In this document: piece by piece, positions 412 through 15,161 of the stretch
Layout of the letters: every line of letters begins with the position of its first letter
How positions within the stretch are numbered: position 1 is the first letter of the stretch
Assembly (NCBI GenBank): GCA_047616325.1
Contig: JBLHGN010000065.1
Coordinates: 1-15,161, forward strand
Direction of reading: 5' to 3'
Length of the DNA: 15,161 nt
DNA from: Lentisphaeria bacterium
GTDB lineage: Bacteria; Pseudomonadota; Gammaproteobacteria; Pseudomonadales; Cellvibrionaceae
Notes under the pieces: generated by a model
Database searches by the model: none
Seen by the model: only the letters and a program-made list of their open reading frames with translations
What the model was told of the DNA's origin: nothing
Program-made: the position numbers and the translations under genes

Positions 412-1656
412 CTATTGCCAGAGTGTATTCATCGGTACCGCATAACAATTGTCTTGAGTCAGCGGCAAGGTGTTATTGCCACAATAGAGTAAGATGCCAC
501 CCTGAAAGCGCTTACCTGCCTGAGCGGCCAAACGGGCCAGACCTGCACTGTCTTTTGGGTTGATACTGGCTGCTTTTTTTACTTCTACTCCCCAAAGCTG
601 TTGGCCACGTTCTATCACCAGGTCAACTTCTACCTGGTCTTTATCGCGGTAATGGCTGAATTTAAAATCACTGCCTATCCAGCTGGCCTGACAAATAAGC
701 TGCTGAACGACAAAACTTTCTAATACAGGGCCAAAATTGCTTTTATGGTTATTCCAGTCGTCGGTTTTTAACCCGCTGAGTGTTGTCGCAAGGCCGGAAT
801 CAATAACGTGTACTTTGGGTGTCTTCACCAATCGTTTGGACTGGTTACGATGCCAGGCGGAAAGTCTGCGCACTAAAAACAGGCGCTCAAGTATGCTCAA
901 GTATTTTTCAGTGGTCTCCCGGGTCATTTTTAACTCATTAGCCATGCTACTGACATTGAGTAAAGTGCCTGTCCGGTAGGCCAGCATTTCCATCAAGGCG
1001 AGCATTTCATCTTCATCCCGAATGGCCGCAATATCTTTAACATCGCGCTGAATAATGGCATTCAGATATTGCCGATGCCATTGTCTGGCTCTGGCAGCCG
1101 AGCGAGTATTCGGTTCTGGGTAGCCACCCTGGCATACAGCTTCAGCGACACCCTCAATAACACTCTGCTCTCCAATGATTTGCGGCGCTATTTTTCCGCT
1201 AATCAAAGAGCTAAGCAGGGAGTTTTTATTGCGGTGCTTCTCTTGTTCCGTTAATGGAAACAGGTTTAATACTTCAACTCTCCCTGCCAGGGATTCTTGT
1301 ACCTTTGGTAATAGCAACAGATTCGCCGAACCTGTCAGCAGAAAGCGACCAGGTGTTCTGCGCTGATCAACAGCAGCCTTGATCGCTGGTAATAATTCAG
1401 GTGCTCGCTGCACCTCATCTAAAATCACTTGTTCTGGCAAGCCCTGAATAAACCCCGTAGGGTCTTGTTGCGCAGTGTTCAGTAGTGTGCTGTCGTCAAA
1501 GCTGATGTAGGAATAATCAGGGCAGTATTCCCTGGCTAACGTGGTTTTACCCACCTGGCGAGGCCCGAGTAAGCAGACGACTGGAGTATCGCTTAGTGCT
1601 TCCAGCAGCAGTGGGGCGATAACTCTTGGTAGTAATGATTTAGCCATAGCGTCCAT
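412..1656 (-). CDS. AAA+ superfamily ATPase of the COG1373 type: N-terminal P-loop ATPase plus C-terminal DUF4143/PD-(D/E)xK-like domain
   Basis: A 414-aa ORF with Walker A GPRQVGKTT near the N-terminus and a Walker B-like hhhhDE (VILDEVQ). The C-terminal block VEVDLVIERGQQLWGVEVKK resembles the restriction-endonuclease-like E-x-D...E-x-K core typical of DUF4143 ATPases. Confidence 0.8.
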   Translation of the reverse strand: MDAMAKSLLPRVIAPLLLEALSDTPVVCLLGPRQVGKTTLAREYCPDYSYISFDDSTLLNTAQQDPTGFIQGLPEQVILDEVQRAPELLPAIKAAVDQRRTPGRFLLTGSANLLLLPKVQESLAGRVEVLNLFPLTEQEKHRNKNSLLSSLISGKIAPQIIGEQSVIEGVAEAVCQGGYPEPNTRSAARARQWHRQYLNAIIQRDVKDIAAIRDEDEMLALMEMLAYRTGTLLNVSSMANELKMTRETTEKYLSILERLFLVRRLSAWHRNQSKRLVKTPKVHVIDSGLATTLSGLKTDDWNNHKSNFGPVLESFVVQQLICQASWIGSDFKFSHYRDKDQVEVDLVIERGQQLWGVEVKKAASINPKDSAGLARLAAQAGKRFQGGILLYCGNNTLPLTQDNCYAVPMNTLWQ

Positions 1657-1671
1657 ATGCTGGTTATGTTG

Positions 1672-1686
1672 TCGTCTAATTGACTG
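1672..1686. repeat. Direct repeat copy 1 (CGTCTAATTGACTGC) in the 5-prime region of the ATPase gene
   Basis: Exact 15-mer repeated at 1926-1940. A partial copy CCGTCTAATTG lies at 1696-1706, and a degenerate ATCGTCAAATTGC at 1947-1959. Confidence 0.6.
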
Positions 1687-1748
1687 CTATACTACCGTCT
1701 AATTGCATAGCTTAAAAGGGCGCTAAGTAAAATGCTTATATTTCAACG

Positions 1749-1765
1749 TGTCGATCACATCGACA
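1749..1765. repeat. 17-bp palindrome TGTCGAT-CAC-ATCGACA, with two further TCGAT-containing sites nearby (1778-1787, 1799-1808)
   Basis: Perfect 7-bp inverted arms around a 3-bp spacer, read directly from the sequence. It sits between the two CGTCTAATTGACTGC copies. Confidence 0.6.
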
Positions 1766-1925
1766 TATCAGGCTGTTATGTCGATATAATTGAAAAACAT
1801 CGATATGTTAGGATTTGTTGGTACTGAAAGAAAAGGGGCTGACAAGATTATGTATACATATTTTGATTTTCTAACCCTACTTTTGCGTTATGTATAGAAA
1901 ATATAGTTTTAATGTGCCTGTTATC

Positions 1926-1940
1926 CGTCTAATTGACTGC
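1926..1940. repeat. Direct repeat copy 2 (CGTCTAATTGACTGC)
   Basis: Identical 15-mer to 1672-1686. The preceding TTATCCGTC is weakly DnaA-box-like (TTATCCACA with 2 mismatches). Confidence 0.6.
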
Positions 1941-2212
1941 CACTCTATCGTCAAATTGCTTGTTTCAAATATCGTATCATTGAGAAGCTGGGAGCTAACT
2001 TCTCAAAAATGACAATTTTTGATCAAGACAACAACAGTGCTCTCCTATTTTATGAAATTTTAGTGGTGAATTATTGAGCTGTTGAGAGGCGCAGAGGAAT
2101 AGGATTCGCATGGCTAAATGGTTAGATTTTATGTAACACTTAAAGTAACATCGTTATTTTTTATTATTAAATAAATCAAGTAAAAACATACAGTTATAGA
2201 TTTAAATCAAGT

Positions 2213-2228
2213 CCTCTCCTGGGTACCA
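2213..2228. repeat. 16-bp direct repeat CCTCTCCTGGGTACCA (copy 1)
   Basis: Repeated with 1 mismatch at 2385-2400 (CCTCTCCTGGGCACCA). The two copies flank a 156-bp non-coding segment. Confidence 0.6.
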
Positions 2229-2384
2229 AATATAAATCAGCAGTAATTCGGCTTTACCCCCCTCAAAAAAAATAACCGTTCCCCGAACCGAAAAGAGGCT
2301 CACAAACGCAACGCGATTGAAACGTTCGGCAATGCAGCGAAGCCCCAACGGGGTCAAAGCAGCTTCAAGGCTATTTTGATTAAC

Positions 2385-2400
2385 CCTCTCCTGGGCACCA
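2385..2400. repeat. 16-bp direct repeat CCTCTCCTGGGCACCA (copy 2)
   Basis: See copy 1 at 2213-2228. Confidence 0.6.
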
Positions 2401-2504
2401 TTATACTAGGACAGGAGAAATCGGTAGAGTCAAAGCGAAAAACCTCAATAACATATCTGAAGCAGAATTTTCTTATCAATACATAGAAAAGGATTTGTAC
2501 GCTT

Positions 2505-2984
2505 TCATTGAGGGAGAGCGGTATTATTAGAATTCTTGTAGGCCATATTTATAGCTGCTGCAATATGCTGTAATGTCCAAATACTATTGGGGTGCAGCAT
2601 ATTTGAACCATGAGCAAGTGTATTTCGTAAATCAGGAGCAGCTTTGACGAACTTACCCACTAAGTCTAATGAATCTAGTGCTGCTTTAATTTCCTCTTCA
2701 GGCGATTCTTCAATAGGGATGCTATCACCCTCCTTTTTCAAGACACCAGATTGAATCACATCATACATTTCATTTTGTCTTGCTTTTCGGTATGCAATCT
2801 CCTCACGATATGAAAAATCTTCATTTTTTAGCCAGCCGCTCGTTCGTGCATATTTCAGCAAAGCACGTAACATAGGAGGATCTTTATCTGGATTTTCGTT
2901 AATATAGAGCTGTTTTAGCGCCATCTCTAAACTTGCATAAGCTACCATCTCAGAGACTTGATGAAAGCGATACACAAAGGGCAT
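2505..2984 (-). CDS. Small orphan protein with a C-terminal HEPN-like R-x4-H motif (LRNTLAHG); putative HEPN-family RNase/abortive-infection-like domain protein
   Basis: A 159-aa ORF. The R-N-T-L-A-H spacing fits the Rx4-6H HEPN signature near the C-terminus of a mostly helical-looking protein. No MNT partner or antitoxin is visible. Its first ~12 codons overlap the start of the ISL3 fragment, and an alternative start at M13 (2948) is possible. Confidence 0.45.
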   Translation of the reverse strand: MPFVYRFHQVSEMVAYASLEMALKQLYINENPDKDPPMLRALLKYARTSGWLKNEDFSYREEIAYRKARQNEMYDVIQSGVLKKEGDSIPIEESPEEEIKAALDSLDLVGKFVKAAPDLRNTLAHGSNMLHPNSIWTLQHIAAAINMAYKNSNNTALPQ

Positions 2985-3731
2985 AAATACCTAACGCTGG
3001 CCTACCAGGTCGATCGCGACAATACGCGCTTACTGTGGATTGTAGAAGAGCGAACTGAAAAAACGATTCGCGCCTTCTTTGAGTTTCTTGGTCCAGAAAG
3101 AAGTCAACTATTAAAACATGTGTACTCTGACATGTGGCAACCCTATGTCAAGGTAATCTCAGAAATGGCCACCCAGGCGCTACATATATTGGATCGATTT
3201 AATGTTGTAGCTATGCGGCATAAGGCCATCGATGAAATTCGTGCGGGTGAACACAAGCAGTTAGTCGCCGACGGCTATGAGCCTGTTTTAAGGAAGTCTC
3301 GATGGTGCCTACTTAAGCGAAAACAGAATTTAACGTAGAATCAAGATATGAAATTGAAAACCTTGCTTGAATATAATTTGAAGAGCGTTAGGGCCTACCT
3401 GCTAAAAGAAGAATTCCATGCTTTCTGGGAATATGTATCTCCTTATTGGGCCGAACAATACCTTGACCGATGGTGTACTAGAGTAATGCGTGCTCGGCTC
3501 GAACCCATGAAAAAAGTCATCAAGACAATTCGCCGGCACAAGCCTCTTATATTGAATTGGTTTAGAGCAAAATAAGCATACTCAAGCGGCATTGTGGAGG
3601 GGCTAAATACCAAGGTAAAACTCACTACGAGAAAATCGTATGGTTTCAAAACCTATAAATGCGCTGAAATAGCCTTGTATCACTCGCTTGGGCGGTTACC
3701 CACTCCAGAAATGACCCACAGATTTTACTAA
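2961..3731 (+). pseudogene. ISL3-family DDE transposase, N-terminally truncated (about 170 aa missing) with two in-frame nonsense codons (TAG 3339-3341, TAA 3573-3575)
   Basis: Three collinear same-frame segments KGHKYLTLAYQVDRD...DMWQPYVKVI...HILDRFNVVAMRHKAIDEIR / ...AFWEYVSPYWAEQYLDRWCTRVMRARLEPMKKVIKTIRRHKPLILNWFRAK / AYSSGIVEGLNTKVKLTTRKSYGFKTYKCAEIALYHSLG. These match my memory of the ISL3 transposase core and C-terminus (KGHRY..., DMW..., ...ILNYFR..., SNGxIEGxNNKIKxIKRxAYGFRNF). Homology begins only at the KGH motif, so the first catalytic D and the N-terminal DNA-binding region are absent. Confidence 0.8.
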
Positions 3732-3754
3732 CGAGGCAAATAATAAGGGTTTTT

Positions 3755-4391
3755 CAGGATTATGCCGAACTTCTGATGGATCAAATAGAGCGTCATGTTT
3801 TAGACGATGAAACTATTCCCGCCAAGGAAAAAATTTACACAATTTTTCAACCGCACACTGAATGGATTAGCAAGGGTAAAGCGGGGCTTTAGTTGAACTT
3901 GGTGTTAAAGTCTGCATTATGGAAGATCAATATCAGTTTATTTTACATCACGAAGTCATGGAAAAAACTCAAGATGTTGATGTAGCCGTGTCGATGGTGA
4001 CACAAACGCAAGTGCATTTCCCATCGCTCAACTCCTGTAGTTTTGATAGAGGTTTTCATAGCCCCTCCAACCAGGTGGAATTAAGCACACACTTGGGTAC
4101 AGCTTGTACTTCCTAAAAAAGGGAAAATGTCTGCGGAAGAAAAATTAAAAGTACACGCACCAGAATACAAAAAAGTACGGCGTCAGCATTCGGCGATGGA
4201 ATCGGCTGTAAATGCACTGGAGCAACACGGTCTTGACCGTTGCTGATCATGGGATTGACGGTTTTAAGCGTTATGTTGCATTAGGTGTTTTAGCCCGCAA
4301 CCTACAGCGCATTGGCCTCATACTCACGGAAAAAGAGCGCGCTGAAATATTACGAAAGCAGCGACGCCAACCATACTGCCAAGCCGCTTAG
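3755..4391 (+). pseudogene. C-terminal half of an IS1182/IS5-superfamily (IS4-like DDE) transposase, disrupted by at least three frameshifts/stops
   Basis: Pieces in three frames are collinear with DDE transposases of this superfamily: DYAELLMDQIERHVLDDETIPAKEKIYTIFQPHTEWISKGKAG / VELGVKVCIMEDQYQFILHHEVMEKTQDVDVAVSMV...SFDRGFHSPSNQ (D-x-G-[FY] second catalytic Asp) / YKKVRRQHSAMESAVNALEQHGLDRC / DHGIDGFKRYVALGVLARNLQRIGLIL. The last two carry the Y-x2-R-x3-E and ...L..LA.NL.R tail motif. It begins about 25 bp after the ISL3 transposase stop. Confidence 0.6.
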
Positions 4392-4469
4392 CGGCACTTA
4401 AATTGGTTCTTGCATTACGATCGCAGCGGAAGAAGCAGGGCTTCAGGAGGGAGCCTTGAGCCAAAAATG

Positions 4470-4494
4470 TTATTGATCGTATAATGATCAATAA
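4470..4494. repeat. 25-bp perfect palindrome TTATTGATC-GTATAAT-GATCAATAA, with two GATC sites and a TATAAT core
   Basis: The 9-bp arms are exact reverse complements around a 7-bp centre. It lies about 80 bp past the end of the IS1182-like fragment. Confidence 0.6.
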
Positions 4495-5143
4495 ATTGTT
4501 TTCAAGATTAGAGTTCCTGAAGCAAAAAGCACAGATAGGTCCACCTGGCCCAGCGTGTTGTGGTCATATTTTGACCGCCACGCCATTACTGAAGAAAACA
4601 GGGGTTTTCGTGCGGGCACTAAGTAGCTTTTTCCTCGCTTGAAACCATTCAGCATTACATTCACCCGCTCATTGTCACTTAGAAAAATCCTTTATGCGAA
4701 AGCATTTTCAGGGCGAGCCGTATTCCATTATCGTGTGCTATCAAACCGGCCCCTTGCTTAAAGACACTGGCATTATGCGGAAAGTTGCAGCGCTTAATAA
4801 TATGCGTGTGTGTTTTGTCGGCAATATTGAAGTGCTTTTGGCTTTTGGCTGAGGGGTTTAGCGGAGTAAAAATTGCTGGGTGATGTCTGCAGAGTGATGT
4901 GTCGTTCGGCGCACGTTTTTTGTGCTGTATATTTAATGTGCTAAGTGTTTATCGTGCAAAAATAGTTTTTGTTGTTCATTTTAAAAACATCTAATCAATT
5001 TGATGCAGATTTGATTGCTTTTTAGTAACAGTATTTTCGTTTCGCCCATTTTTGTGCCGACCTGGTTTCAAAACAGTGCGTTTATTTTCTTTTCATGATG
5101 AAATTCGCGTCAATACGTTAACTCTGCGTCACATTTAGATGTA

Positions 5144-5159
5144 TGGCACGTTAACTGCT
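5144..5159 (+). promoter_or_regulatory. Putative sigma-54 (RpoN) promoter TGGCACG-TTAA-CTGCT (-24 GG / -12 GC, correct 11-nt G-to-G spacing)
   Basis: The consensus is TGGCACG-N4-TTGCW. Here the TGGCACG matches exactly, the TGC of the -12 element is at the correct distance, and there is a single mismatch (C for T at the first T of TTGC). It lies about 200 bp upstream of the sensor kinase start. The 9-mer ACGTTAACT occurs twice (5115-5123, 5148-5156), once overlapping the promoter and once about 30 bp upstream. Confidence 0.45.
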
Positions 5160-5357
5160 AAGTTTGCTGAGTATGCTCGTTTTCTGAAAAATATATTTTT
5201 TGCTAATGTTCAACCTTAGTATGTTTTGCCATTTATCACTCTTACAAAACATTTTTGCGGCGAACCTTTTGGAGTTTTGGCGAACGTGAAGGCTGACATT
5301 TAAGGGTGGACTTAGTCTAAAAACAAACATTTCGTAGTTAAATATTTGGGGGTTATA

Positions 5358-7445
5358 ATGTTCGCATCTTACCTTGGTAAGTATAAAAGTATCATCGTTT
5401 CTGTAGCGCTTTTTATTATTCTTGATGCCTCCGTACTAATACTTAACTTCTATATTTCGTTTGATATTTCGGAAGATGCGGCAGGGGTTAATTTGGCGGG
5501 CCGCCAGCGCATGCTTTCCCAGCGTATGGTGAAAAGCTTATTGGATATTGATTACTCCAGTGGGAATGTAGAAGTACAAAAAGCAAGCGTCGATGAATTA
5601 GCGTTCACAGTTTCGTTGTTCGATCGCACCCTTACAGCCTTTGATAGCGGCGGAGAGGCAGATGCCGCTGACGGCGGCAAGGTTATTCTCGGGCGAGTGA
5701 ATTCCGAGTCAGGACGCAAAGCCATTGAAAAAGCAAAAATATTGTGGGCTCCCTATAAATCACTGCTAGACCCCGTAATATTGCCTGAATCGCTTGAAAG
5801 AGAGCGTGCATTAGCTACGGCAATTTTCTATGCAAAACAAAACAATCTCACTTTGCTAAAACTGATGAATAATTTAACTGTCGACCTGGAAAATGTGGCC
5901 AAATCAAAAGCTACTCGGCTGAGAGTTATTCAGACAATAGGTATAAGTTTAGCAATTATTAACTTCTTTATCATTATTTTTCACTTTATTGGCGAGTTGA
6001 GAAATGGTGACAGAAAACTCGAAATTGCCGAGGGCGAAACCAAAAAAATACTTAATACGGTCAACGATGGGCTTTTTCTTGTCGATCGCAATTATACCAT
6101 TGCCTCGCAGTACTCCAAAAATGTACCGACGATGTTTGGCGAGTCGGATATCGCTGGTAAAACGCTCGATGCAGTTCTGGCCGAATTGGTGAGTAAGAAG
6201 GACATGGAGACTTCCAAGCGCTTTATAGGATTACTTTTTCGTGAAGATATAAAAAGTAATCTTATTGGTGATCTGAATCCTCTGCGAGAAATTGAAGTGA
6301 ATATTGCCGACGAGAATGGCGGTTATGTTAGCAAGCATCTAAGCTTTAAATTTTCTCGTGCCTATGAGAGCGGCGGCGTAAAAAATGTTTTGGTTACTGT
6401 AAATGATGTGACTGAAAAGGTGAGGCTAGAGCGCGAAATTACTATGGTAAAAGCGCAAACGGAACAGCATTTGGAGGTGTTAACCGGAATTTTACACACT
6501 AATCCAAATGTATTAAAACGTTTTGTAAGCGGTTGCTTTACCGGCCTTCATAGAATCAATCTGTTTTTGCGTGAGCCTGCAAAAACCGAAGTGGTTTTGA
6601 GAAAAAAATTGGATAGCATTTTTGTCGAAATTCACAGCATAAAAGGTGAGGCGGGCGCACTCGGTTTGAACGGCTTTCAGGAGCTTGCTCACAAATTTGA
6701 ATCGGACTTGGTCGAAATTAAAAAACGTGAGAAAATTGCCGGTGATGACTTTTTCCCCTTGGTTGTGCAATTAGATAAGCTGATACGGCATGCGGAAACC
6801 GTCGAAAACCTGTCTGATAAGCTCGTCGCCTTTGGCAAAAGCGACGCAGGGCTTGGCGCTCGAAGCAGTGCCAATGAATGGGAGCACCTGCACAACTTGG
6901 TGAAAACAGTTGCCACACGATGCGGGAAAAAGGTGGAGCTAGTGATGAGTGGGCTTACAGAGATCTCTCTTTCCAGTGGCCAGCGAAAACTAGTCAATGA
7001 TGTTAGTGTGCAATGCATTCGCAACGCGGTATTTCACGGCATTGAGCTTCCGAATGAGCGCATAGAAAATTACAAGAACGAGATCGGAAGAATCGATCTT
7101 CGATTAACGCAGTCTTCCTCTGGTGTGGTAGAGCTTAGTATTAAAGACGACGGCCGAGGCTTCGACTATCGAGCAATTCGAGAACAAGCGATTAAGGTGG
7201 GCTTCTGGGGCGAGCAAGAAATGGAAGCATGGGATAGTAAGAAATTAGCTTCACTTATTTTTGAGCCAGGCTTCTCTACAGCCCAAGAAGAGCAGATGGA
7301 CGCGGGCAGAGGCGTGGGAATGAATATTGTCAAAGAGCGTATTAAGCACTATCGCGGCAATATTCGCATATCCAGCCGTCCCTCCTTGGGAACACACTTT
7401 CTTATCTCTTTACCTCCTTTATTGGGTGAAGCCGCAGCGGCATAG
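5358..7445 (+). CDS. Membrane-bound CheA-like histidine kinase: TM - periplasmic PilJ/NarX-type sensor (NLAGRQRMLSQRM) - TM - PAS-like - HPt (HSIKGEAGALG) - CheA-type P3/P4 ATPase (IRNAVFHGIE, DDGRGFD, GRGVGMNIV); no CheW-like P5 domain
   Basis: The 699-aa ORF in the track starts at TTG 5346; I prefer ATG 5358, preceded by GGGGG. There are two hydrophobic segments (residues ~10-35 and ~190-215). The HPt and HATPase_c N, G1 and G2 boxes are characteristic of CheA. The protein ends about 40 aa after the G2 box. Confidence 0.8.
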   Translation: MFASYLGKYKSIIVSVALFIILDASVLILNFYISFDISEDAAGVNLAGRQRMLSQRMVKSLLDIDYSSGNVEVQKASVDELAFTVSLFDRTLTAFDSGGEADAADGGKVILGRVNSESGRKAIEKAKILWAPYKSLLDPVILPESLERERALATAIFYAKQNNLTLLKLMNNLTVDLENVAKSKATRLRVIQTIGISLAIINFFIIIFHFIGELRNGDRKLEIAEGETKKILNTVNDGLFLVDRNYTIASQYSKNVPTMFGESDIAGKTLDAVLAELVSKKDMETSKRFIGLLFREDIKSNLIGDLNPLREIEVNIADENGGYVSKHLSFKFSRAYESGGVKNVLVTVNDVTEKVRLEREITMVKAQTEQHLEVLTGILHTNPNVLKRFVSGCFTGLHRINLFLREPAKTEVVLRKKLDSIFVEIHSIKGEAGALGLNGFQELAHKFESDLVEIKKREKIAGDDFFPLVVQLDKLIRHAETVENLSDKLVAFGKSDAGLGARSSANEWEHLHNLVKTVATRCGKKVELVMSGLTEISLSSGQRKLVNDVSVQCIRNAVFHGIELPNERIENYKNEIGRIDLRLTQSSSGVVELSIKDDGRGFDYRAIREQAIKVGFWGEQEMEAWDSKKLASLIFEPGFSTAQEEQMDAGRGVGMNIVKERIKHYRGNIRISSRPSLGTHFLISLPPLLGEAAAA

Positions 7446-7453
7446 GCGATGTA

Positions 7454-7825
7454 ATGTTAAAGCTACTGGTAGTAGACGACTCCAATATTATTCGCCGGAA
7501 AATTCAGCGCGCGTGCATAAACGAAACGTTTGAAGTGGTGGGGCTGGCGGGTAACGGCATAGAAGCACTGCGACAGTTTGGTGACTTAGGCCCCGAGGTT
7601 GTGACAATGGATATCACCATGCCGCATATGGATGGCATTGAATGCGTGGAGGAAATGATAGGCAGAAATCCAAATGTGCGCATTTTAGTGGTGTCGGCTC
7701 TGGCCGACAAAGCCACTGGAATAGAGGCACTAGAAAAGGGCGCACGTGGCTTTTTATGCAAGCCTTTTAGTGACAAACAACTTAGCGATGCACTTTACGA
7801 ATTATCTGAGGACATACATGTCTGA
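7454..7825 (+). CDS. CheY-like single-domain response regulator (receiver domain only)
   Basis: A 123-aa ORF with the acidic pocket LLVVDDS, the phospho-acceptor region VVTMDITMPHMDG, the ILVVSA...KATG T/S position, and K in GARGFLCKPF. It starts 9 bp after the kinase stop. Confidence 0.9.
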   Translation: MLKLLVVDDSNIIRRKIQRACINETFEVVGLAGNGIEALRQFGDLGPEVVTMDITMPHMDGIECVEEMIGRNPNVRILVVSALADKATGIEALEKGARGFLCKPFSDKQLSDALYELSEDIHV

Positions 7826-8267
7826 ACAAGCACTTAAAGTATTTGTTGACGGGGTGGTCAATTATTTTCAACACACAGCCGACAAAGATGTAAAAGTTGG
7901 CGCCCCATATTTGGTGGAAAATAAACAGCCCAAAGCCTTTGGTTTTACGGGCATTATCGGCGTTTCGGGGCCCTATAAGGGTACCGTATATTTTACCGCG
8001 CCGCGTATTTTACTCACTCATCTTTTGTTGAGTATCGGAGAGTTGGACACCTCGCTTGCCAATGTTATGGATATTGTTGGTGAAGTGGCCAATACTATAT
8101 CCGGAAACGCACGTGCAAATTTCGGCAAAGAATTTATGATTTCTGTACCGGTTATGGTTGAGGGTGCGCCCAGCGCCATTCACCTACCCTGCCATTTGCG
8201 CTCTTACGTAATACCAATATATTGGAAAGCCTATAGTGCTGCTGTGGTGGTGTGTCTTGAGGTTTAG
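7818..8267 (+). CDS. CheX/CheC-family CheY-P phosphatase-like protein
   Basis: Start ATG 7818 (MSEQALKVF...) overlaps the CheY stop as ATGTCTGA and is preceded by GAGGA. The motif DIVGEVANTISGNARANFG fits the E-x2-N active-site signature of CheC/CheX/FliY. A GIIGVSG glycine-rich segment and the ~150-aa length fit CheX. Confidence 0.7.
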   Translation: MSEQALKVFVDGVVNYFQHTADKDVKVGAPYLVENKQPKAFGFTGIIGVSGPYKGTVYFTAPRILLTHLLLSIGELDTSLANVMDIVGEVANTISGNARANFGKEFMISVPVMVEGAPSAIHLPCHLRSYVIPIYWKAYSAAVVVCLEV

Positions 8268-8486
8268 GGTTGGGTCATTGCCAATAGAGCGCTTACTGCC
8301 AGGTTAGCTCTGTTATCTTGTGAACGGCTCTCTGCTTTTTATACGCCATATAAATTCGAAAACCCCCAGTTGCTTGTGATTGTCTTGGAAGTATTGAGGT
8401 TGTCTTTGTCTTAAAATTCATTAGTGCCCTGTTTATGGGTGAGCACTAATAAATTTCTCGAAAATTACACTTTTCCCGCGCAGCTG

Positions 8487-8499
8487 CCCCCCCCCCCCC
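8487..8499. repeat. Homopolymeric C13 tract
   Basis: Thirteen consecutive C in the spacer between the cheX-like gene and the downstream operon. It falls inside a weak 75-codon GTG-initiated frame (8424..8651) that I do not call as a gene. Confidence 0.7.
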
Positions 8500-8641
8500 G
8501 CATGCCAATATCTACGTATAGCCTCATGTGGATCCTGGGCGGGCTCTTAGTGCTTGCCTTGTTGTTGCCCGCCTATATCCTTCAGATGCGCGTTCATTCC
8601 GTTGTAAAAATCGTTCAATCTGGTTGGTGTGTGACCTGCCA

Positions 8642-8693
8642 TTATATGTAAGTGTGTTTTATTACATGTAATATCTCGACATCTTACATGTAA
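8642..8693. promoter_or_regulatory. Three phased copies of the palindrome TTACATGTAA (8642-8651 degenerate TTATATGTAA; 8662-8671; 8684-8693), a putative operator array overlapping the promoter of the downstream operon
   Basis: The perfect 10-bp palindrome (12 bp as ATTACATGTAAT) occurs twice, plus a 1-mismatch copy. Centre-to-centre spacings are 20 and 22 bp. The array ends 18 bp before ATG 8711. Confidence 0.5.
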
Positions 8694-8710
8694 TAGGATA
8701 GTGTGGCCCT

Positions 8711-9343
8711 ATGAGTGAAAAAACATCAGCGCACTACCAGCGGGAATATCGCCGCCGGCTGCGAGATCAAGGTTTGGTAAAGAAAGAGGTGTGGGTGCTG
8801 CCGGAAAATGCCAAGCATTTGGGTAAGTTTGAAAAGATGCTGCGGGAACCCCTGAACCCATCGGATTTAACTAAAGGAGTGTTAAAAATGACCGAAATGA
8901 AACGTTGGACCACTACGACTCTTTTTGAGGTGCTGGCTGTCGAGCCGCTTTTTGATGGCGACCGAGCAATGGTGGAGCTTATTGATGGTGCTGAGCCAAG
9001 TTTGCATCTGGTGATGCATGAGTTTGGCGACTTGCCTTTGTTTTTAACTGTGGCGGGTGACCAGATAATTATCGATGCCGTGTTGTGGCCAAAAAGCGAA
9101 GTGGCGGACATCTCTGGGTTTAATGATGCAGTGCTGAGAACCCATAAGTATTTTCCGCTATCCACCATTAGTCTAGACACCCTATCGAGCGGGGCCGACT
9201 ACTATCAAATGTTTGGTGCTTTGAGTGCAAGCTCAATTTTGCCAAATATCATTTTTGAAATAGAGATGTTGGCATCCAATGTGATTCAGGCTACCGAAGC
9301 CTATGCCAATTTTTTATCAAACCAACTAAATGTGAAGGTGTGA
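8711..9343 (+). CDS. Two-part ORF: N-terminal basic/ribbon-helix-helix-like segment (YQREYRRRLRDQGLVKKEVWVLPENAKHLGKFEKML) in frame with a YjfI/DUF2170-like (YbjN-clan) domain; the DUF2170 part may be translated independently from ATG 8888
   Basis: A 210-aa frame. K-x-V-x-V-x-LPE followed by a helix is the Arc/MetJ/CopG beta-strand signature. The internal ATG 8888 (MTEMKRW...) has a strong AAGGAG RBS 8 nt upstream, whereas ATG 8711 has a weak RBS. The C-terminal 150 aa are called YjfI-like mainly from synteny, being immediately upstream of a YjfJ-type PspA gene, and from overall character. Confidence 0.55.
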   Translation: MSEKTSAHYQREYRRRLRDQGLVKKEVWVLPENAKHLGKFEKMLREPLNPSDLTKGVLKMTEMKRWTTTTLFEVLAVEPLFDGDRAMVELIDGAEPSLHLVMHEFGDLPLFLTVAGDQIIIDAVLWPKSEVADISGFNDAVLRTHKYFPLSTISLDTLSSGADYYQMFGALSASSILPNIIFEIEMLASNVIQATEAYANFLSNQLNVKV

Positions 9344-9353
9344 GGAGAGGTAA

Positions 9354-10037
9354 ATGAATGTCTGGGCGAAAATGATGACAGCGTTGCGCGGTGGAGTAAA
9401 TGAGGCGGGTGAGTTGATTGTCGATACTCAAGCCCTGCGTATTCTGGATCAAGAGGTGCGCGGTGCCACTGAGGAATTGAAACAGTCAAAAGAGGGTTTG
9501 GCGAGTATAATCGCCCGACAAAAGTTGGCGGAAGAAAAAACCGCGCTACTGCAAAAAGACATTAGCGATTATGAGGGCTATGCTGTAAAGGCTCTCGAGA
9601 AGGGTGACGAGTCGCTTGCCTTAGAGGTTGCGCAAAAAATAGCCAATCTGGAAAATGGCATGTCGACCGAGAAAAAAACCGCAGAGAGCTTTGCTGAAAG
9701 TGCTACAGAGCTCCGCAATGCCATGAAATTGGCCGAGCAGAACATTAAAAGGCTGAAGCAGCAGATCGACACCGTTAAGGCCACAGACAGTGTGCAAAAA
9801 GCGCAGGCGACTGTAGCAGCGCGATACAGTGGTTCAAACTCTAAATTGCGCACAGCGATGGATTCGCTAGACCGAATAAAAGAGAAGCAAGCCCTTAAAA
9901 GCGCGCAAATGAAAGCTGCTAATGAGCTTGCTGCAGAGACAGTAGACGATACATTGCAAACTAAGCTGCAAGCGGCTGGCATTACATCTTCTGGTGCTAG
10001 CGCCCAAGATGTCTTGGACCGTTTAAAAAAGGCTTAG
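9354..10037 (+). CDS. yjfJ: PspA/IM30 (ESCRT-III-like) family protein, YjfJ-type paralog
   Basis: A 227-aa ORF with a GAGGAGAGG RBS. RILDQEVRGATEEL and YAVKALEKGDESLALEV align with E. coli YjfJ RMLEQHIRDAKAEL and AIKALESGDEAFALEV. It is an alpha-helical, coiled-coil-rich protein. Confidence 0.8.
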   Translation: MNVWAKMMTALRGGVNEAGELIVDTQALRILDQEVRGATEELKQSKEGLASIIARQKLAEEKTALLQKDISDYEGYAVKALEKGDESLALEVAQKIANLENGMSTEKKTAESFAESATELRNAMKLAEQNIKRLKQQIDTVKATDSVQKAQATVAARYSGSNSKLRTAMDSLDRIKEKQALKSAQMKAANELAAETVDDTLQTKLQAAGITSSGASAQDVLDRLKKA

Positions 10038-10057
10038 TTGTGTTTATATAACAATAG

Positions 10058-10132
10058 GCTCGCCGAGTTTCGGTGAGCTCTAGCTAGCGTCCTATTTGTA
10101 GGCGAGCACTAGCTAATTGAAGGGCAATTAGC
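10058..10132 (+). other. Structured intergenic RNA region: two 8-bp-stem hairpins (10058-10078 GCTCGCCG-AGTTT-CGGTGAGC; 10112-10132 GCTAATTG-AAGGG-CAATTAGC) and a 14-bp direct repeat GYGAGCWCTAGCTA (10073-10088, 10102-10117); no U-tract
   Basis: Read directly from the sequence. It lies between the PspA-like and NfeD-like genes. It is not a canonical intrinsic terminator because both hairpins are followed by mixed sequence rather than a T-run. Confidence 0.35.
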
Positions 10133-10203
10133 AGAGCCGTACCCGCCTTACGGGAATAAGCTGTAAATAAAAAAATTAATGTAATAGGGTTGGGAGAACG
10201 CCG

Positions 10204-10872
10204 ATGTTTGCAATTTTGCTCACCGATAAAACGGACGGTTTTTATTCAATAGTTCTAACCTTTCCAACGGTAATATTCTCATTCTTGCTCATTGTTAGTC
10301 TCATCTATTGGCTGATTTCATTTCTAGGCGTGATAGATCTAGATATGCTTGATGCAGATGTGGATGGCGCAATGGGGGGCGACGATGTCGGTATGCCAAG
10401 CTCCGTAGCTGGTTTGGCGATGAGGCTGGGTTTAAACGGCGTGCCGTTGCCTATCATAATTTCACTTATTGCCATATTTTCTTGGTCGATTAGCTATTAC
10501 TCCGTGCACTTTATGTATCCTTTTGTACCTGGGTTTCTGGAGTGGTTAGCCGGAATTGTGATTTTGTTTGGTAGTTTATATTTGGCCATATTAATAACGG
10601 CACAAATTATCAAGCCGATACGCAGGTTGTTTAAGCAGGCGGATCAGCAAGTGGAAAAACATATCGTTGGGCGCATCGGCGTTGTTAGAACGGGGCGAGT
10701 AGATAAGTGTTTTGGTGAGGCGGTAGTGGAAGATGGTGGGGCGGGTTTAGTGGTAAAGGTTCGCTCATTTAAAGATGAGGAGTTTTCGCGGGGGGATCGT
10801 ATCGTTCTTTTAGAGTACGTGGCGTCTGGAAATATTTATAAAGTGATTTCAGAAAAAGATTTTAATAAATAA
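10204..10872 (+). CDS. yqiJ: NfeD-like inner-membrane protein with C-terminal OB-fold (YqiJ/DUF1449-like), partner of the downstream SPFH protein
   Basis: A 222-aa ORF with a GGAGAA RBS. It has three to four hydrophobic helices and a C-terminal beta-rich segment IVGRIGVVRTGRVDKCFGEAVVEDGGAGLVVKVRSF...GDRIVLLEY typical of the NfeD OB-fold. It is followed 23 bp later by a flotillin gene, as in E. coli yqiJK. Confidence 0.7.
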   Translation: MFAILLTDKTDGFYSIVLTFPTVIFSFLLIVSLIYWLISFLGVIDLDMLDADVDGAMGGDDVGMPSSVAGLAMRLGLNGVPLPIIISLIAIFSWSISYYSVHFMYPFVPGFLEWLAGIVILFGSLYLAILITAQIIKPIRRLFKQADQQVEKHIVGRIGVVRTGRVDKCFGEAVVEDGGAGLVVKVRSFKDEEFSRGDRIVLLEYVASGNIYKVISEKDFNK

Positions 10873-10895
10873 TTTAATGGTTAAGGAGTAAGGCT

Positions 10896-12854
10896 ATGCT
10901 GTCGGAATATATTGCTAATTTTGGCCCGCTAGTAGTTATTTGTGGGTTTGTAATAACTTTATTGTTGGGTGTGGGGGTTTGGTTTAAATCCTTCTACGTT
11001 AAAGTAGAGCAGGGTGTGGCTCTAATTAAAAATGATATGGGTCCAAAGCCGAAGGTATTTTTTACGGGAACCTTTGTCTACCCAGTTATTCATAAAAAAG
11101 AATTAATGCGAATTTCCCTGATTACCATGGAGGTCGATCGTCGCGGAAAAGATGGTCTCATTTGCAAAGATAATATGCGTGCGGATATCACCGTTGCGTT
11201 TTACCTTCGAGTGAATGAAACCCCTGAAGATGTATTAAAGGTAGCCAAGTCTCTGGGTGCAAATCGTGCCTCGGATAAGGACGCTGTAAGCGAGTTATTT
11301 AATGCCAAATTTTCTGAGGCTTTAAAAACTGTTGGCAAGCAAATTGATTTTGTCAATTTGTTTGAAAATAGACAGCAGTTTCGCGACAAAATTATCGAAG
11401 TTATTGGTAACGACCTCAACGGTTATGTGCTCGAAGACGTCGCTATCGACTATCTGGAACAAACGCCAAAATCTTCACTCGACCCTAGCAATATTCTCGA
11501 CGCCGAGGGGATACGTAAAATTACTGAATTGACGGCTACCCAAAACATTAAAACCAATGTTTTTGAGCGCGATGAAGAGTTGGCAATTAAAAAGAAGAAT
11601 GTTGAAACAAGAGAGGCCATGTTAGAGCTGGAGCGTCAGCAGGCCGATGCCGAGGCTAGGCAGGAAAGAGAAGTTGCGAGCATACGGGCACGAGAAGAAG
11701 CAGAAACTGTGAAAGTGCAAGAGGAAGAACGATTAAAGTCAGAGAGTTCTACCATTCAAACAGATCAGGACCTTGCCGTGCAAACGGAAAACCAAAAGCG
11801 GGAAATTGAAGTGGCCGAACAGAATCGCCAGCGCGCGGTTGTGATTGAGGTTGAAAAGGTTACACGAGCGAAAGATTTAGAAATTGTCTCCCGTGAGAGG
11901 GAGGTAGAGCTACAGCGTATAGAGGCCGAGAAGGCCGTAGAGATACAGCGCAAAGAGATTGCAAATGTAATTCGTGAGCGTGTTGCAGTAGATAAAACTG
12001 TAGCCATGGAAGAAGAGAAAATTAAAGAAGTACGCGAAGTCTCTGAGGCCGATCGTCGCAAGCAAACTAAAATTTTAGATGCAGAAGCCTTGGCAGAAGA
12101 GAAAAAAGTAGAAGAAGTTAAAAAAGCAGAAGGGGAAGAGTTAGCCGCAAAACACCGTGCTGTAGAAATTACCGTATTGGCCCAGGCTAACTTGGAGGCC
12201 TCGGCGAAAGAAGCCGATTCTCAGAAGAAATTGGCCGATGGCATACAGGCCACTCGGGCGGCTCCTGGGCTGGCCGACGCAAAAGTGCAAGAGGCAAATG
12301 CCGATGCATTTGAAAAAGAAGGCTTGGCAAAGGCGCGAGTCATTGCAGCTCAGGGCGAATCTGAAGCAACTGTTACCAGTTCAGTGGGTACAGCAGAGGC
12401 AAGTGTTATCGCCCAAAAGGGAAGTTCAGAGGCACAATCCAAGCGCGAGATAGGGCTTGCTGGAGCTGAAGTAATTCGTCAAACCTTTAAGGCAGAAGCG
12501 GATGGCTTGGTGGACAAATTTGAAGCCATGAATAGCATGAGCGACAAAGCGCGAGACCATGAAGAATTCCGTATGGGTCTAGAAACAGCATTGAAAGAAG
12601 TACTTGCTTCCATTGAAGCAGGAAAAGAGATCGCGAAAGAAAATGCCGATGTGTTGGCGGCTGCACTTCAAACGGCCAAAATTGATATCGTGGGTGGCGA
12701 AGAGCACTTCTTTGATAACTTTGCGAAATCACTTTCTATCGGTAAGGCCGTTGACGGACTAGCCGATAAAAGTGGCATCATTCAAGCGATACTGGCGAAA
12801 GTGATGGAAACCAGTGCGGCTAGAAATGCAGAAACCACTACAGAAATAAGCTAG
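10896..12854 (+). CDS. yqiK: SPFH/band-7 flotillin-like membrane protein (YqiK-like) with a long E/K/A/R-rich coiled-coil region
   Basis: A 652-aa ORF with an AAGGAG RBS. It has an N-terminal TM helix and an SPFH core (VALIKNDMGPKPKVFFTGTFVYPVIHKKELMRISLITMEVD...RADITVAFYLRV). About 250 aa of heptad-like E/K/R/A-rich sequence follow. The C-terminus is flotillin-like (DIVGG..., GIIQAIL). Confidence 0.85.
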   Translation: MLSEYIANFGPLVVICGFVITLLLGVGVWFKSFYVKVEQGVALIKNDMGPKPKVFFTGTFVYPVIHKKELMRISLITMEVDRRGKDGLICKDNMRADITVAFYLRVNETPEDVLKVAKSLGANRASDKDAVSELFNAKFSEALKTVGKQIDFVNLFENRQQFRDKIIEVIGNDLNGYVLEDVAIDYLEQTPKSSLDPSNILDAEGIRKITELTATQNIKTNVFERDEELAIKKKNVETREAMLELERQQADAEARQEREVASIRAREEAETVKVQEEERLKSESSTIQTDQDLAVQTENQKREIEVAEQNRQRAVVIEVEKVTRAKDLEIVSREREVELQRIEAEKAVEIQRKEIANVIRERVAVDKTVAMEEEKIKEVREVSEADRRKQTKILDAEALAEEKKVEEVKKAEGEELAAKHRAVEITVLAQANLEASAKEADSQKKLADGIQATRAAPGLADAKVQEANADAFEKEGLAKARVIAAQGESEATVTSSVGTAEASVIAQKGSSEAQSKREIGLAGAEVIRQTFKAEADGLVDKFEAMNSMSDKARDHEEFRMGLETALKEVLASIEAGKEIAKENADVLAAALQTAKIDIVGGEEHFFDNFAKSLSIGKAVDGLADKSGIIQAILAKVMETSAARNAETTTEIS

Positions 12855-12862
12855 TCATAGGG

Positions 12863-12914
12863 CTACGCCAAATATTGATTTTTTTTTAAGTTGTTGGTCG
12901 ATTATTTGGCGTAG
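12863..12914. repeat. 12-bp perfect inverted repeat CTACGCCAAATA / TATTTGGCGTAG around a 28-nt T-rich loop containing T9; possible attenuator- or terminator-like element or protein-binding site
   Basis: Arms at 12863-12874 and 12903-12914. It starts 9 bp after the flotillin stop and ends 30 bp before the next start. Confidence 0.3.
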
Positions 12915-12944
12915 TTAACATAGGTTTTAAGTTGGAGAGATGCT

Positions 12945-13268
12945 GTGAGCGAATTCAGTGATATTACTCAAGCCTTGGTAGAAAAAGTAAGGCTGGCAGG
13001 AGTAGATGTCGATTCGGAGCTGCTACAAAAAAGTGGCACTATCGCTAAGAATCTGAAGGCAGGCATTGGCCCCGTATCTGGTGCTGGTCTTGGTCTTGGT
13101 GTTGGCGCGATGATGTCTGCAAAGAATGGAAAATTGATCGAGAACGTTTTGCTCGGGGCGGGTGTTGGTGCTCTTTTAGGTTGGACCCTAAAAGAGTTTA
13201 TGTGTGAAAAAAAGCCTGCCGGTAAAGCGCTTCTCGATAGCACCGCCACGGACATTATTCACAAGTAA
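12945..13268 (+). CDS. Small glycine-zipper membrane-associated protein (two GxxxG-type zippers: GIGPVSGAGLGLGVGAMM and GAGVGALLGW)
   Basis: A 107-aa ORF with a GTG start 5 nt after a GGAGAG RBS. It has an amphipathic N-terminus followed by Gly-zipper segments. Confidence 0.55.
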   Translation: MSEFSDITQALVEKVRLAGVDVDSELLQKSGTIAKNLKAGIGPVSGAGLGLGVGAMMSAKNGKLIENVLLGAGVGALLGWTLKEFMCEKKPAGKALLDSTATDIIHK

Positions 13269-13362
13269 TCTTTATGTCTATCTAATAGTCTAAGATTTGG
13301 AACCTTAGAAAACTAAAATCCCCGATAACAGTGTGTTACCTCGGCTATGGATAAGGTGTCGT

Positions 13363-15161
13363 ATGTCGGAAAAAATAGAGAATAATTCGGAAATGTTGGT
13401 CGGTCAAGCAGTAGCAGAGGGCGGTGCGTACGAAGTTATAAAGCGACGCCTCACCGAGCAGGGTAATCGCTTAATTGATCGCGTTGATATTCTAAATAAG
13501 GCGCGCCTGAGTGAGTTTGGAACCTCAGACATGGCGGTCGCCGCGCGCACGAGAGTGCGTACAGAAAACAATTGTATCGCGCGTGACATTGTCCAAGTGG
13601 GCGACTGCCTGTTATTTGGCTACAACGTATTTATAGGCTTAAAAAAAGAAACCTTAGTAAACGATGTTTTTGCGGTGTTTAGTTTGGATCACAGCGGTGA
13701 TCAGTATGAGATGCAGAAAATAAAAACAGAGGATACTTTTTTAGGTGACGAGAGATTTGCCAAGGACTTTCACGAACTCTATCACTACTACAAGCAGACC
13801 CGACTGCAAGAAATTTCAGTAAAAGACGGCAAGCTTTTAATGGGTTTCCAAATAGGCGAACGCTTAGAGGCGGTACGCGTATTTCGCTGGTCGATTTCAG
13901 CTGACGGCACCAAAGTTGAATACATCGACAATCGCGGTGAGCGCGATATTCAGCTACCGCCAGCCTATGATTTTGAGTGGCAGCAATGCACGCGCGAAGA
14001 CGTGGTTCACGGGCGCCACGCCCACGTTAATATTCTAGATACAGTTTTTATCGAGACCATAGCGGGTGACCTGACGCTTAAGGTAGAAAATAACACCGAC
14101 GAAGGTGAGGGAATATACCGCGAAGAGGTTGACAGCAAGACGCAGTCTATTGACGACGCTGAATTTTGGTTCGCAAAACTTGGCGATTTGATTTTATTAA
14201 AAGTATTGCCCTATCAAGAAGAAATATGGCGATACCTTGTTTTTAATACTCTTACACAAAAGGTTAATCGTATCGACGCCATTGGCGCTTCCTGCGTGCA
14301 ATTGCCAGAAGACCACGGCATTGTTTTTCCCGGTGGTTATTACCTGCAGTCGGGTGAGTATAAAACTTACGACGACGAAACCGAAGGCTTAAAATTTAAG
14401 CGAATGATTCGCTCCCCCAATGGAGAAGATGTTCTCTATGTGTTTTACGAGCCGGTCAACGGGCTTTTTGCTTTGCTGGCTTATAATATGATCAACAAGG
14501 CTTTGCTGAACCCCATCGTAGGCCACGGTTACGCTCTAGCAGGCGACGGCACCTTAGTGATTTTTTCTGCTGAGGGGGAACCCACTCGTATACACCCTAT
14601 GCAAATCTGGAATACTCCCTACGTCAGTGATGAGTTCGCCAGCAAACAGCCGGAGAGCCAAACATTTTTTGGTCGGATCGGTAACGCGCCATTGGTAAGA
14701 GGTATTTCCGATCTATACAGCGTTGGCCGCGTTGCGCTAAACCAATCTGTTTCGGCGCGTGTGTACGAAGAGCTTAGCAAAGCAGCTCTAAAGATTTTCG
14801 ACGATCATTTTTGGGTTTTGGATAACCAGCTCAACGAAGTATTGGCGGTAGAGGGCGAGTCGAATAATACAGGCGATGAAAATACCCTTGAGCGATTGCT
14901 ACGGGGCGTTTCCGATACGGCAGAGTTGGCTATAGACGAATTCGAAAAAGTTGAAAGCATCAGCCAGCAATCTGCTTTTGCACTAAAAGACGCTATGGCG
15001 GCGCAAAATAGTTTAGTCAGTTTGGTCACCACATCATCCTGGGAAACCGTAGAAGAATATGTTGGTGCGCTGGATGACATTCGCAAACAGCGCGGCCACG
15101 TGGCTACTATAAAAGATTATCGTTATATCGACGTAGACAAGTTGAAGCAAATGGATGAGAA
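13363..15161 (+). CDS. Large conserved-looking hypothetical protein of at least 599 aa, with no stop before the window end; no motif I recognise
   Basis: My own translation from ATG 13363 runs without a stop codon to position 15161 (MSEKIENNSEMLVGQAVAEGGAYEVIKRRLTEQGNRLIDRVDILNKARLSEFG...DIRKQRGHVATIKDYRYIDVDKLKQMDE). The RBS is AAGGTG 4 nt upstream. It has mixed alpha/beta character and no P-loop in the part visible. It is absent from the ORF track, presumably because it has no in-window stop. Confidence 0.7.
   Translation, partial: MSEKIENNSEMLVGQAVAEGGAYEVIKRRLTEQGNRLIDRVDILNKARLSEFGTSDMAVAARTRVRTENNCIARDIVQVGDCLLFGYNVFIGLKKETLVNDVFAVFSLDHSGDQYEMQKIKTEDTFLGDERFAKDFHELYHYYKQTRLQEISVKDGKLLMGFQIGERLEAVRVFRWSISADGTKVEYIDNRGERDIQLPPAYDFEWQQCTREDVVHGRHAHVNILDTVFIETIAGDLTLKVENNTDEGEGIYREEVDSKTQSIDDAEFWFAKLGDLILLKVLPYQEEIWRYLVFNTLTQKVNRIDAIGASCVQLPEDHGIVFPGGYYLQSGEYKTYDDETEGLKFKRMIRSPNGEDVLYVFYEPVNGLFALLAYNMINKALLNPIVGHGYALAGDGTLVIFSAEGEPTRIHPMQIWNTPYVSDEFASKQPESQTFFGRIGNAPLVRGISDLYSVGRVALNQSVSARVYEELSKAALKIFDDHFWVLDNQLNEVLAVEGESNNTGDENTLERLLRGVSDTAELAIDEFEKVESISQQSAFALKDAMAAQNSLVSLVTTSSWETVEEYVGALDDIRKQRGHVATIKDYRYIDVDKLKQMDE

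Follow-up and report, generated by a model that had tools for sequence, protein, structure and literature searches.

A BacE/DUF3686-family gene cut by the window end beside flotillin, NfeD and PspA genes: 5′ part of a giant AAA+ ATPase and candidate remodeller of bacterial membrane scaffolds

The bac cluster of Pseudomonas aeruginosa, or biofilm-associated cluster (PMC10948618; PMC2587700), is the closest described counterpart of the locus considered here. PA3729–PA3732 were defined by Mace et al. (2008; PMC2587700), and RT-PCR has since placed bacA to bacF on one transcript, PA14_16190 (bacE) and PA14_16200 (bacF) included (Wallart et al., 2024; PMC10948618). In a bacA mutant BacB to BacF were raised 6-13-fold; the domains of BacE were not discussed in that study (PMC10948618). 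Co-induction of PA3728–PA3732 has been observed upon phage infection (PMC12041424) and in another proteome (PMC13637947), and PA3728 figures among the genes mutated recurrently in isolates from cystic fibrosis (PMC8190622). The operon class to which the cluster belongs was described in silico by Ravi et al. (2024; PMC11237479), who proposed ATP-dependent membrane-associated remodelling and also noted abbreviated operons without PspA. According to a 2025 review, bacteria seem to lack a Vps4-like ATPase (PMC7619361).

The DNA analyzed here, referred to as the window, is a stretch of 15,161 nucleotides that carries an operon of the same type on its forward strand, with the following features:

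8711..9343, + strand: DUF2170/CesT-Tir-like protein (BacA/PA3732, YjfI type; PF09938; NCBIfam BacA, 311 bits against a cut-off of 300)
9354..10037, + strand: PspA/IM30 protein (BacB/PA3731, YjfJ type; PF04012, E = 2e-44)
10204..10872, + strand: NfeD/YqiJ-type protein with multiple transmembrane segments (BacC/PA3730 orthologue; YqiJ/YuaF assignment from PMC11237479)
10896..12854, + strand: flotillin-like protein with one N-terminal transmembrane segment (BacD/PA3729 orthologue; weak FloT match)
12945..13268, + strand: Gly-zipper open reading frame of 107 codons with a GTG start, between the flotillin and ATPase genes (sub-threshold Gly-zipper match)
13353..13356, + strand: Shine-Dalgarno core AAGG, read from the sequence, 6 nt 5′ of the ATG at 13363
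13363..15161, + strand: 5′ part of a bacE/PA3728-type giant AAA+ ATPase gene (assigned from the open frame, PF12458, complete orthologues and the P. aeruginosa locus)
13471..14811, + strand: Pfam DUF3686 match (aa 37-483, profile positions 2-448 of 448)

From the ATG at 13363, frame 1 runs without a stop for 599 codons, the last complete codon ending at 15159, and is still open where the window ends; the first-pass annotation had reported just this, at least 599 open codons running off the window, together with a good ribosome-binding site. Base-frequency arithmetic at about 45% G+C (locally the value is about 45-49%) puts the chance occurrence of such a stop-free run at about 2e-15, and in alignments with homologues the N-terminus is colinear with that of the orthologues (query coverage 98-100%). 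Taken together, the open frame, the Shine-Dalgarno core and the colinear N-terminus show that the reading frame is real and make ATG 13363 a plausible start.

The same annotation had found no recognizable motif in the encoded protein. This holds for Walker A, which is absent from the 599 residues, but not in general: residues 37-483 match PF12458 (DUF3686, "ATPase involved in DNA repair") over practically the full profile, with 667.4 bits against a cut-off of 25 (E = 1e-200). This match rules out an orphan gene, and the operon type has likewise been published already (PMC11237479). NCBIfam holds no family that matches the ATPase. The best relatives are 66% identical, and the family is moderately large, with 767 clusters at 50% identity reaching E <= 1e-3 and 253 reaching E <= 1e-30 in a library of 1.84 billion representatives. 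In P. aeruginosa the locus reads DUF2170, PspA, NfeD-like, flotillin-like and DUF3686/AAA+, followed by a PLDc_2/YaeQ gene; in one P. aeruginosa isolate the ATPase gene carries a frameshift. The window has the same Pfam family in the same gene order, the gene product is 65% identical to that of the P. aeruginosa locus (L081) over the best aligned segment, and the upstream gene passes the NCBIfam BacA threshold. It is thus close to certain that the window gene is a BacE/DUF3686-family orthologue of P. aeruginosa BacE (PA3728/PA14_16190). The operon has already been described, and the family has its own Pfam entry and gene name as well as a function predicted in silico in the literature, but it is biochemically uncharacterized.

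An AlphaFold2 (AF2) model of the 599 residues is of good quality (mean pLDDT 89.2, pTM 0.84). Its first 18 residues are predicted to be disordered, and three structural regions follow:

13426..13518, + strand: long N-terminal helix, aa 22-52 (AF2 model)
13534..14613, + strand: beta-rich, divergent beta-propeller-like domain of about 28 strands, aa 58-417 (AF2 model)
14629..15159, + strand: helical bundle or coiled-coil region, aa 423-599, which in orthologues continues into DUF7902 (about aa 603-694) past the window end

The portion of the protein encoded in the window is, as modelled, non-catalytic and made up of a long helix, a propeller-like domain and a helical bundle, in keeping with the earlier description of a non-repetitive sequence of mixed alpha/beta character. 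A search of PDB sequences with this fragment gave no meaningful match.

The remainder of the protein has to be read from relatives. Protein searches yielded no homologue fragment longer than about 1,040 aa, and complete genes were taken from 80 genome loci, 70 of which hold a complete orthologue of 1,686-1,868 aa (median 1,768). Judged by these lengths, the window would carry about the first third of a gene for a protein of some 1,770 residues. The orthologues share a layout in which DUF3686 is followed by DUF7902 (PF25472), lying just beyond the point that corresponds to the window end, then by about 600 uncharacterized, mostly helical residues, one AAA+ module and a helical tail. Pfam searches with two full-length orthologues, from Maricurvus nonylphenolicus (L002) and an uncultured member of the Pseudomonadales (L001), detected DUF3686, DUF7902 and overlapping weak AAA, AAA_5 and AAA_22 matches at about residues 1300-1440. 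The AAA+ module is found in every complete orthologue (n = 70), about 700 residues past the window end, which bears out the earlier suggestion that the window encodes an N-terminal region ahead of a downstream AAA+ domain. The P-loop and Walker B signatures that had been proposed as a check are also there, beyond the part equivalent to the window: conservation in the orthologues is highest in the AAA+ block (column conservation 0.86-0.94), which contains an invariant Walker A (SPPGYGKTT), Walker B (LYLDDIQH) and sensor-1-like motif (GNPYTE) as well as a conserved PDMLANRAD motif.

Structural evidence for the fold comes from a C-terminal orthologue fragment (P0121), of which the AF2 model is moderate (pLDDT 70, pTM 0.47) but has an order of secondary-structure elements that fits the AAA+ fold of an alpha-beta-alpha core with a helical lid. 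Foldseek comparison of this model with the PDB returned AAA+ ATPases of many clades, among them Cdc48, NorQ, Ycf2/FtsHi, RuvB, ClpX, spastin, Vps4 and RFC, with probabilities of 0.97-1.0, E-values of about 1e-4 and TM scores not exceeding 0.43; the AAA+ core fold is thereby recognized on the orthologue fragment and not on the window sequence. Profile searches of PDB sequences with the AAA+ block gave only P-loop matches of about 35 residues at E = 2e-3 or weaker, and no meaningful match was obtained either by a PDB sequence search with the full M. nonylphenolicus orthologue or by a PDB profile search with the middle 650 residues of the orthologues. A second, degenerate AAA+ domain in that middle region was considered and rejected, as its profile-profile probability was 0.1%. 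The ATPase has no transmembrane segment, its maximum KD19 remaining below 1.6; the flotillin and NfeD proteins reach 2.6.

In the orthologues, Walker B reads DD, with Asp where the catalytic Glu of the usual DE is expected; this position lies outside the window. Because the DD is invariant, a slow, switch-like ATPase remains conceivable. The AAA+ module might bind ATP and hardly hydrolyze it, as in DnaA/ORC-type initiators with a DD Walker B, and thereby control the oligomerization of a large cytoplasmic platform that organizes flotillin microdomains and recruits clients. The weak AAA_22 matches would agree with such a nucleotide-regulated scaffold, as would the proportion of the protein, about 1,300 of 1,770 residues, given over to non-catalytic helical and propeller modules of the kind typical of scaffolds. 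On the other hand, the AAA+ block, including the sensor-1-like Asn and the conserved arginine of ANRAD, is the most constrained part of the protein, which fits an active site that turns over, and its structural neighbors include the motors NorQ, RuvB, ClpX and Cdc48. We regard the switch as unlikely, though deserving of serious consideration, and an ATP-hydrolyzing remodeller as the better reading of the module.

The names attached to the family point in another direction altogether. Besides the Pfam title, homologues carry the NCBI name "DNA repair ATPase," and P. aeruginosa BacF combines PLDc_2, with weak similarity to NucT, DrmC and DpdK, with YaeQ; one could accordingly picture a large ATPase with coiled coils that works on DNA, possibly aided by the PLD/NucT-like nuclease that some operons encode downstream. 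Searches of full-length orthologues, however, revealed no domain of the DNA-binding, nuclease or SMC/RecN type, and the ATPase is of the AAA+ and not of the ABC/SMC type. Its constant neighbors are membrane proteins, only 14 of 63 loci have a PLD gene in the 1.5 kb that follow, and no paper in the searched literature uses the term DUF3686. The name has the look of an old label that was never curated. A role in DNA repair is very improbable on these grounds.

The company kept by the gene was assessed in 64 related loci whose upstream sequence extends for at least 4.6 kb. A flotillin gene lies upstream of the ATPase gene in 60 of them and an NfeD/YqiJ gene likewise in 60, whereas PspA and DUF2170 genes are each found in 44. 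The loci that lack an adjacent flotillin belong to Methylococcales, and three distant loci, one of them from a Myxococcus assembly, keep the NfeD-flotillin-DUF3686 arrangement without PspA. Flotillin is the most constant neighbor, with a median identity of 73% that falls to 48-53% in the distant loci. Given these counts, and the retention of both genes without PspA in distant loci, flotillin and NfeD are the constant partners of the ATPase, and PspA with DUF2170 is a frequent add-on. The operon is chromosomal and syntenic across gammaproteobacterial orders at 60-80% identity, and conservation of the family extends from Gammaproteobacteria to the Myxococcus assembly. Co-occurrence with yjfJ-like (PspA) and SPFH genes had been put forward as a test of the idea that the protein is a partner of the PspA/NfeD/flotillin cluster; the synteny supports that idea, as do the co-transcription and co-regulation of the P. 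aeruginosa orthologue (PMC10948618; PMC12041424). The accompanying statement that the gene ends the operon is usually untrue of relatives, in which more genes tend to follow on the same strand: an ORF of about 185 aa, a Zn-ribbon gene (no more than 1.5 kb away in 27 of 63 loci), a PLD/HKD gene (14 of 63 loci) or an MscS-like gene.

Two features set the window apart from the P. aeruginosa cluster. One is the additional Gly-zipper ORF, for which none of 81 loci has a counterpart separating the flotillin gene from the ATPase gene; because it is not conserved at that position in any relative, its membership of the system is doubtful. The other is upstream of the bacA-like gene, where P. aeruginosa has a proposed sigma-54 site: no -24/-12 site was found at this position in the window, in which the total of matches to the motif is below chance expectation, and two TTACATGTAA palindromes are present instead. 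A scan of 8200-13400 for promoters and terminators gave no more hits than shuffled sequence did. The terminator-like hairpins at 13155-13197 fall within the Gly-zipper ORF and not 3′ of it, so that there is no sign of a transcriptional break before the ATPase gene. Rfam and tRNA scans of the window found nothing. Further upstream, the window holds a PADLOC candidate defence ATPase, PDC-S01, at 412-1656 on the minus strand (E = 1.8e-159), and fragments of an ISL3 transposase are found 10 kb upstream.

An anti-phage function, in which the large ATPase and a PLD nuclease would sense infection and the membrane proteins would act as effectors, would draw on these latter elements, on the resemblance of the PLD partner to DrmC, DpdK and MkoB/C, and on the induction of PA3728–PA3732 by phage mentioned above. 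Psp genes are generally induced by phage through membrane damage, however, and PDC-S01 is on the opposite strand, separated from the operon by a two-component/CheX cluster. Neither BacE nor the flotillin has a significant PADLOC match; the best E-values for the ATPase are 0.0023 with the window fragment and 0.00023 with a full orthologue, the latter over the P-loop only, and no stretch passes. The chromosomal position and conserved synteny of the operon are also unlike those of mobile, patchily distributed defence islands. We consider defence improbable, if somewhat less so than DNA repair, and return to a function at the membrane.

The reading to which we incline, by a narrow margin over doubt and by analogy with known systems, is that BacE-type proteins act as soluble, ATP-driven remodellers of the membrane assemblies formed by flotillin and PspA, a prediction at which Ravi et al. 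(2024; PMC11237479) arrived independently. The N-terminus with its propeller and helices, roughly the part encoded in the window, would dock on the cytoplasmic face of the membrane assembly formed by flotillin (SPFH) and NfeD/YqiJ, and in operons that also encode PspA and its DUF2170 chaperone could dock on PspA polymers too. The C-terminal AAA+ module would then spend ATP on building, remodelling or dismantling these scaffolds under envelope stress, making the protein a functional analogue, not a homologue, of Vps4 acting on ESCRT-III. A bolder version, which we put forward tentatively and hold to be distinctly less probable, is that BacE-type proteins are the missing bacterial ATP-driven remodeller of membrane scaffolds, with an N-terminus that recognizes flotillin cages and PspA polymers alike and a divergent AAA+ ring that disassembles or recycles them. 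Were this so, bacteria would possess a non-homologous functional equivalent of the enzyme that the review cited above considered absent (PMC7619361). For the dismantling of PspA and flotillin assemblies in bacteria, the BacE/DUF3686 family is the obvious candidate. The window itself adds little to this, being the non-catalytic third of one more orthologue that takes matters nowhere beyond published comparative genomics, but the family is a good target for experiments.

Comparison with Vps4/CdvC and its ESCRT-III substrates (Snf7, CdvB) is suggested by the presence of an AAA+ ATPase gene beside that of PspA, a polymer of the ESCRT-III superfamily, and it is this adjacency that makes a role in disassembly or remodelling a plausible analogy. 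The first-pass annotation had speculated about an AAA+, Vps4-like or other mechanoenzyme domain; the AAA+ part is upheld in the orthologues, but membership of the Vps4 family is not. There is no Pfam match to MIT, the N-terminus consisting of a helix, a propeller-like domain and larger helical bundles; BacE-type proteins are about four times larger than Vps4, with one divergent AAA+ module and a DD Walker B; and structural matches are spread over many AAA+ clades. An affinity with Vps4/CdvC of the classic clade was likewise rejected: Vps4 appears at E = 0.13 in the PDB profile search and at rank 37 among mixed clades in Foldseek, and similarity to classic-clade AAA proteins is confined to the level of Walker A (E about 2e-3). 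Genetic linkage differs as well, the BacE-type gene being tied more strongly to flotillin than to PspA. By analogy, a Vps4-like function is conceivable.

The pairing of HflK/C with FtsH, and other pairs of SPFH cages with AAA+ enzymes, resemble the locus in that an SPFH scaffold is coupled genetically to an AAA+ enzyme and to an NfeD-type partner. FtsH combines protease activity with a membrane anchor and a classic AAA module, whereas BacE has neither a transmembrane segment nor a protease domain. HflK/C faces the periplasm; the bulk of the window flotillin, unlike HflK/C, would presumably be cytoplasmic. Chaperones of the MoxR/NorQ type (AAA_5) offer a further parallel, in that AAA_5 matches the entire core of BacE orthologues, if weakly, NorQ has the best target-normalized TM scores (0.39-0.43) and a GNP sensor-1-like motif is preceded by a beta-hairpin. 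BacE-type proteins differ from them in the lack of a VWA partner, a DD and not DE Walker B and huge N-terminal extensions, and the scores are too weak to assign a clade. The operon class of Ravi et al. (2024; PMC11237479) shows no essential difference from the present locus, all five components and the architecture of the ATPase having been recovered independently here; what the present counts add to that description is that flotillin and NfeD are tighter partners of the ATPase than PspA.

Across the related loci compared with the window (L001-L081), the flotillin-like gene has a median identity to its counterpart in the window of 73%, against 62% for the N-terminus of the DUF3686 AAA+ ATPase. 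The flotillin-like gene upstream of the ATPase gene returned no Pfam Band_7 or Flotillin match at E <= 0.1; a gene so well conserved and yet without a match indicates that Pfam covers this flotillin subfamily poorly. An insert of about 1.5-3.6 kb separates the two genes in two Methylococcales loci (L005 and L028), and in L008, L011, and L027 no flotillin was found 5' of the ATPase gene within the upstream sequence retrieved. In the window, they are separated by a short frame:

12945-13268, plus strand: Gly-zipper ORF of 107 codons (start codon GTG), 3' of the flotillin gene and 5' of the ATPase gene

None of the 81 related loci carries this ORF between the two genes, and terminator-like hairpins lie inside it at 13155-13197. 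Either the ORF is an insertion specific to this lineage, or it is no genuine gene.

The ATPase frame is itself split or shortened in some relatives. In the P. aeruginosa locus L081 (GCA_900706875.1, 10001-15240), bacE occupies two overlapping ORFs of 566 aa and 1,198 aa, apparently through a frameshift in that isolate, which fits the recurrent mutation of PA3728 (bacE) reported in cystic-fibrosis isolates (PMC8190622). The ATPase frame of L038 is also truncated, at 647 aa.

Upstream of the bac-like operon, the following features were recorded:

412-1656, minus strand: AAA_14 and DUF4143 ATPase of 414 aa, matching PADLOC candidate defence family PDC-S01 (E = 1.8e-159)
2958-3575, probably to about 4900, plus strand: halves of an ISL3 DDE transposase (PF01610) in two neighbouring ORFs
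5144-5159: sigma-54-like match, TGGCACGTTAACTGCT
5346-8267, plus strand: signalling cluster, immediately 5' of the operon
8489-8500, plus strand: unbroken run of 12 C, intergenic, 5' of the operon
within 8640-8700, plus strand: two copies of the palindrome TTACATGTAA, 10-60 nt 5' of the bacA-like start at 8711

The two ISL3 ORFs cover positions 7-128 and 134-205 of the PF01610 profile and are followed by a series of short ORFs, a split match and trail that suggest a broken or decayed IS element. Apart from these transposase ORFs, 1656-5346 contains no long ORFs, and no Rfam or tRNA matches. The signalling cluster encodes a PilJ-N/Hpt/HATPase hybrid kinase of 699 aa, whose start codon is TTG, together with a CheY-like receiver and a CheX phosphatase. 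Its position beside the bac-like operon is not conserved among relatives (0-3 of the 81 loci). Matches such as TGGCACGTTAACTGCT are no more numerous in the window than expected by chance.

Closer to the operon, the 12-C tract could be slippage-prone sequence or an assembly artefact, and the paired palindromes look like an operator. No sigma-54 -24/-12 element was found at 8640-8700, upstream of the bacA-like start; in this the gene differs from P. aeruginosa bacA, for which a sigma-54 site has been proposed.
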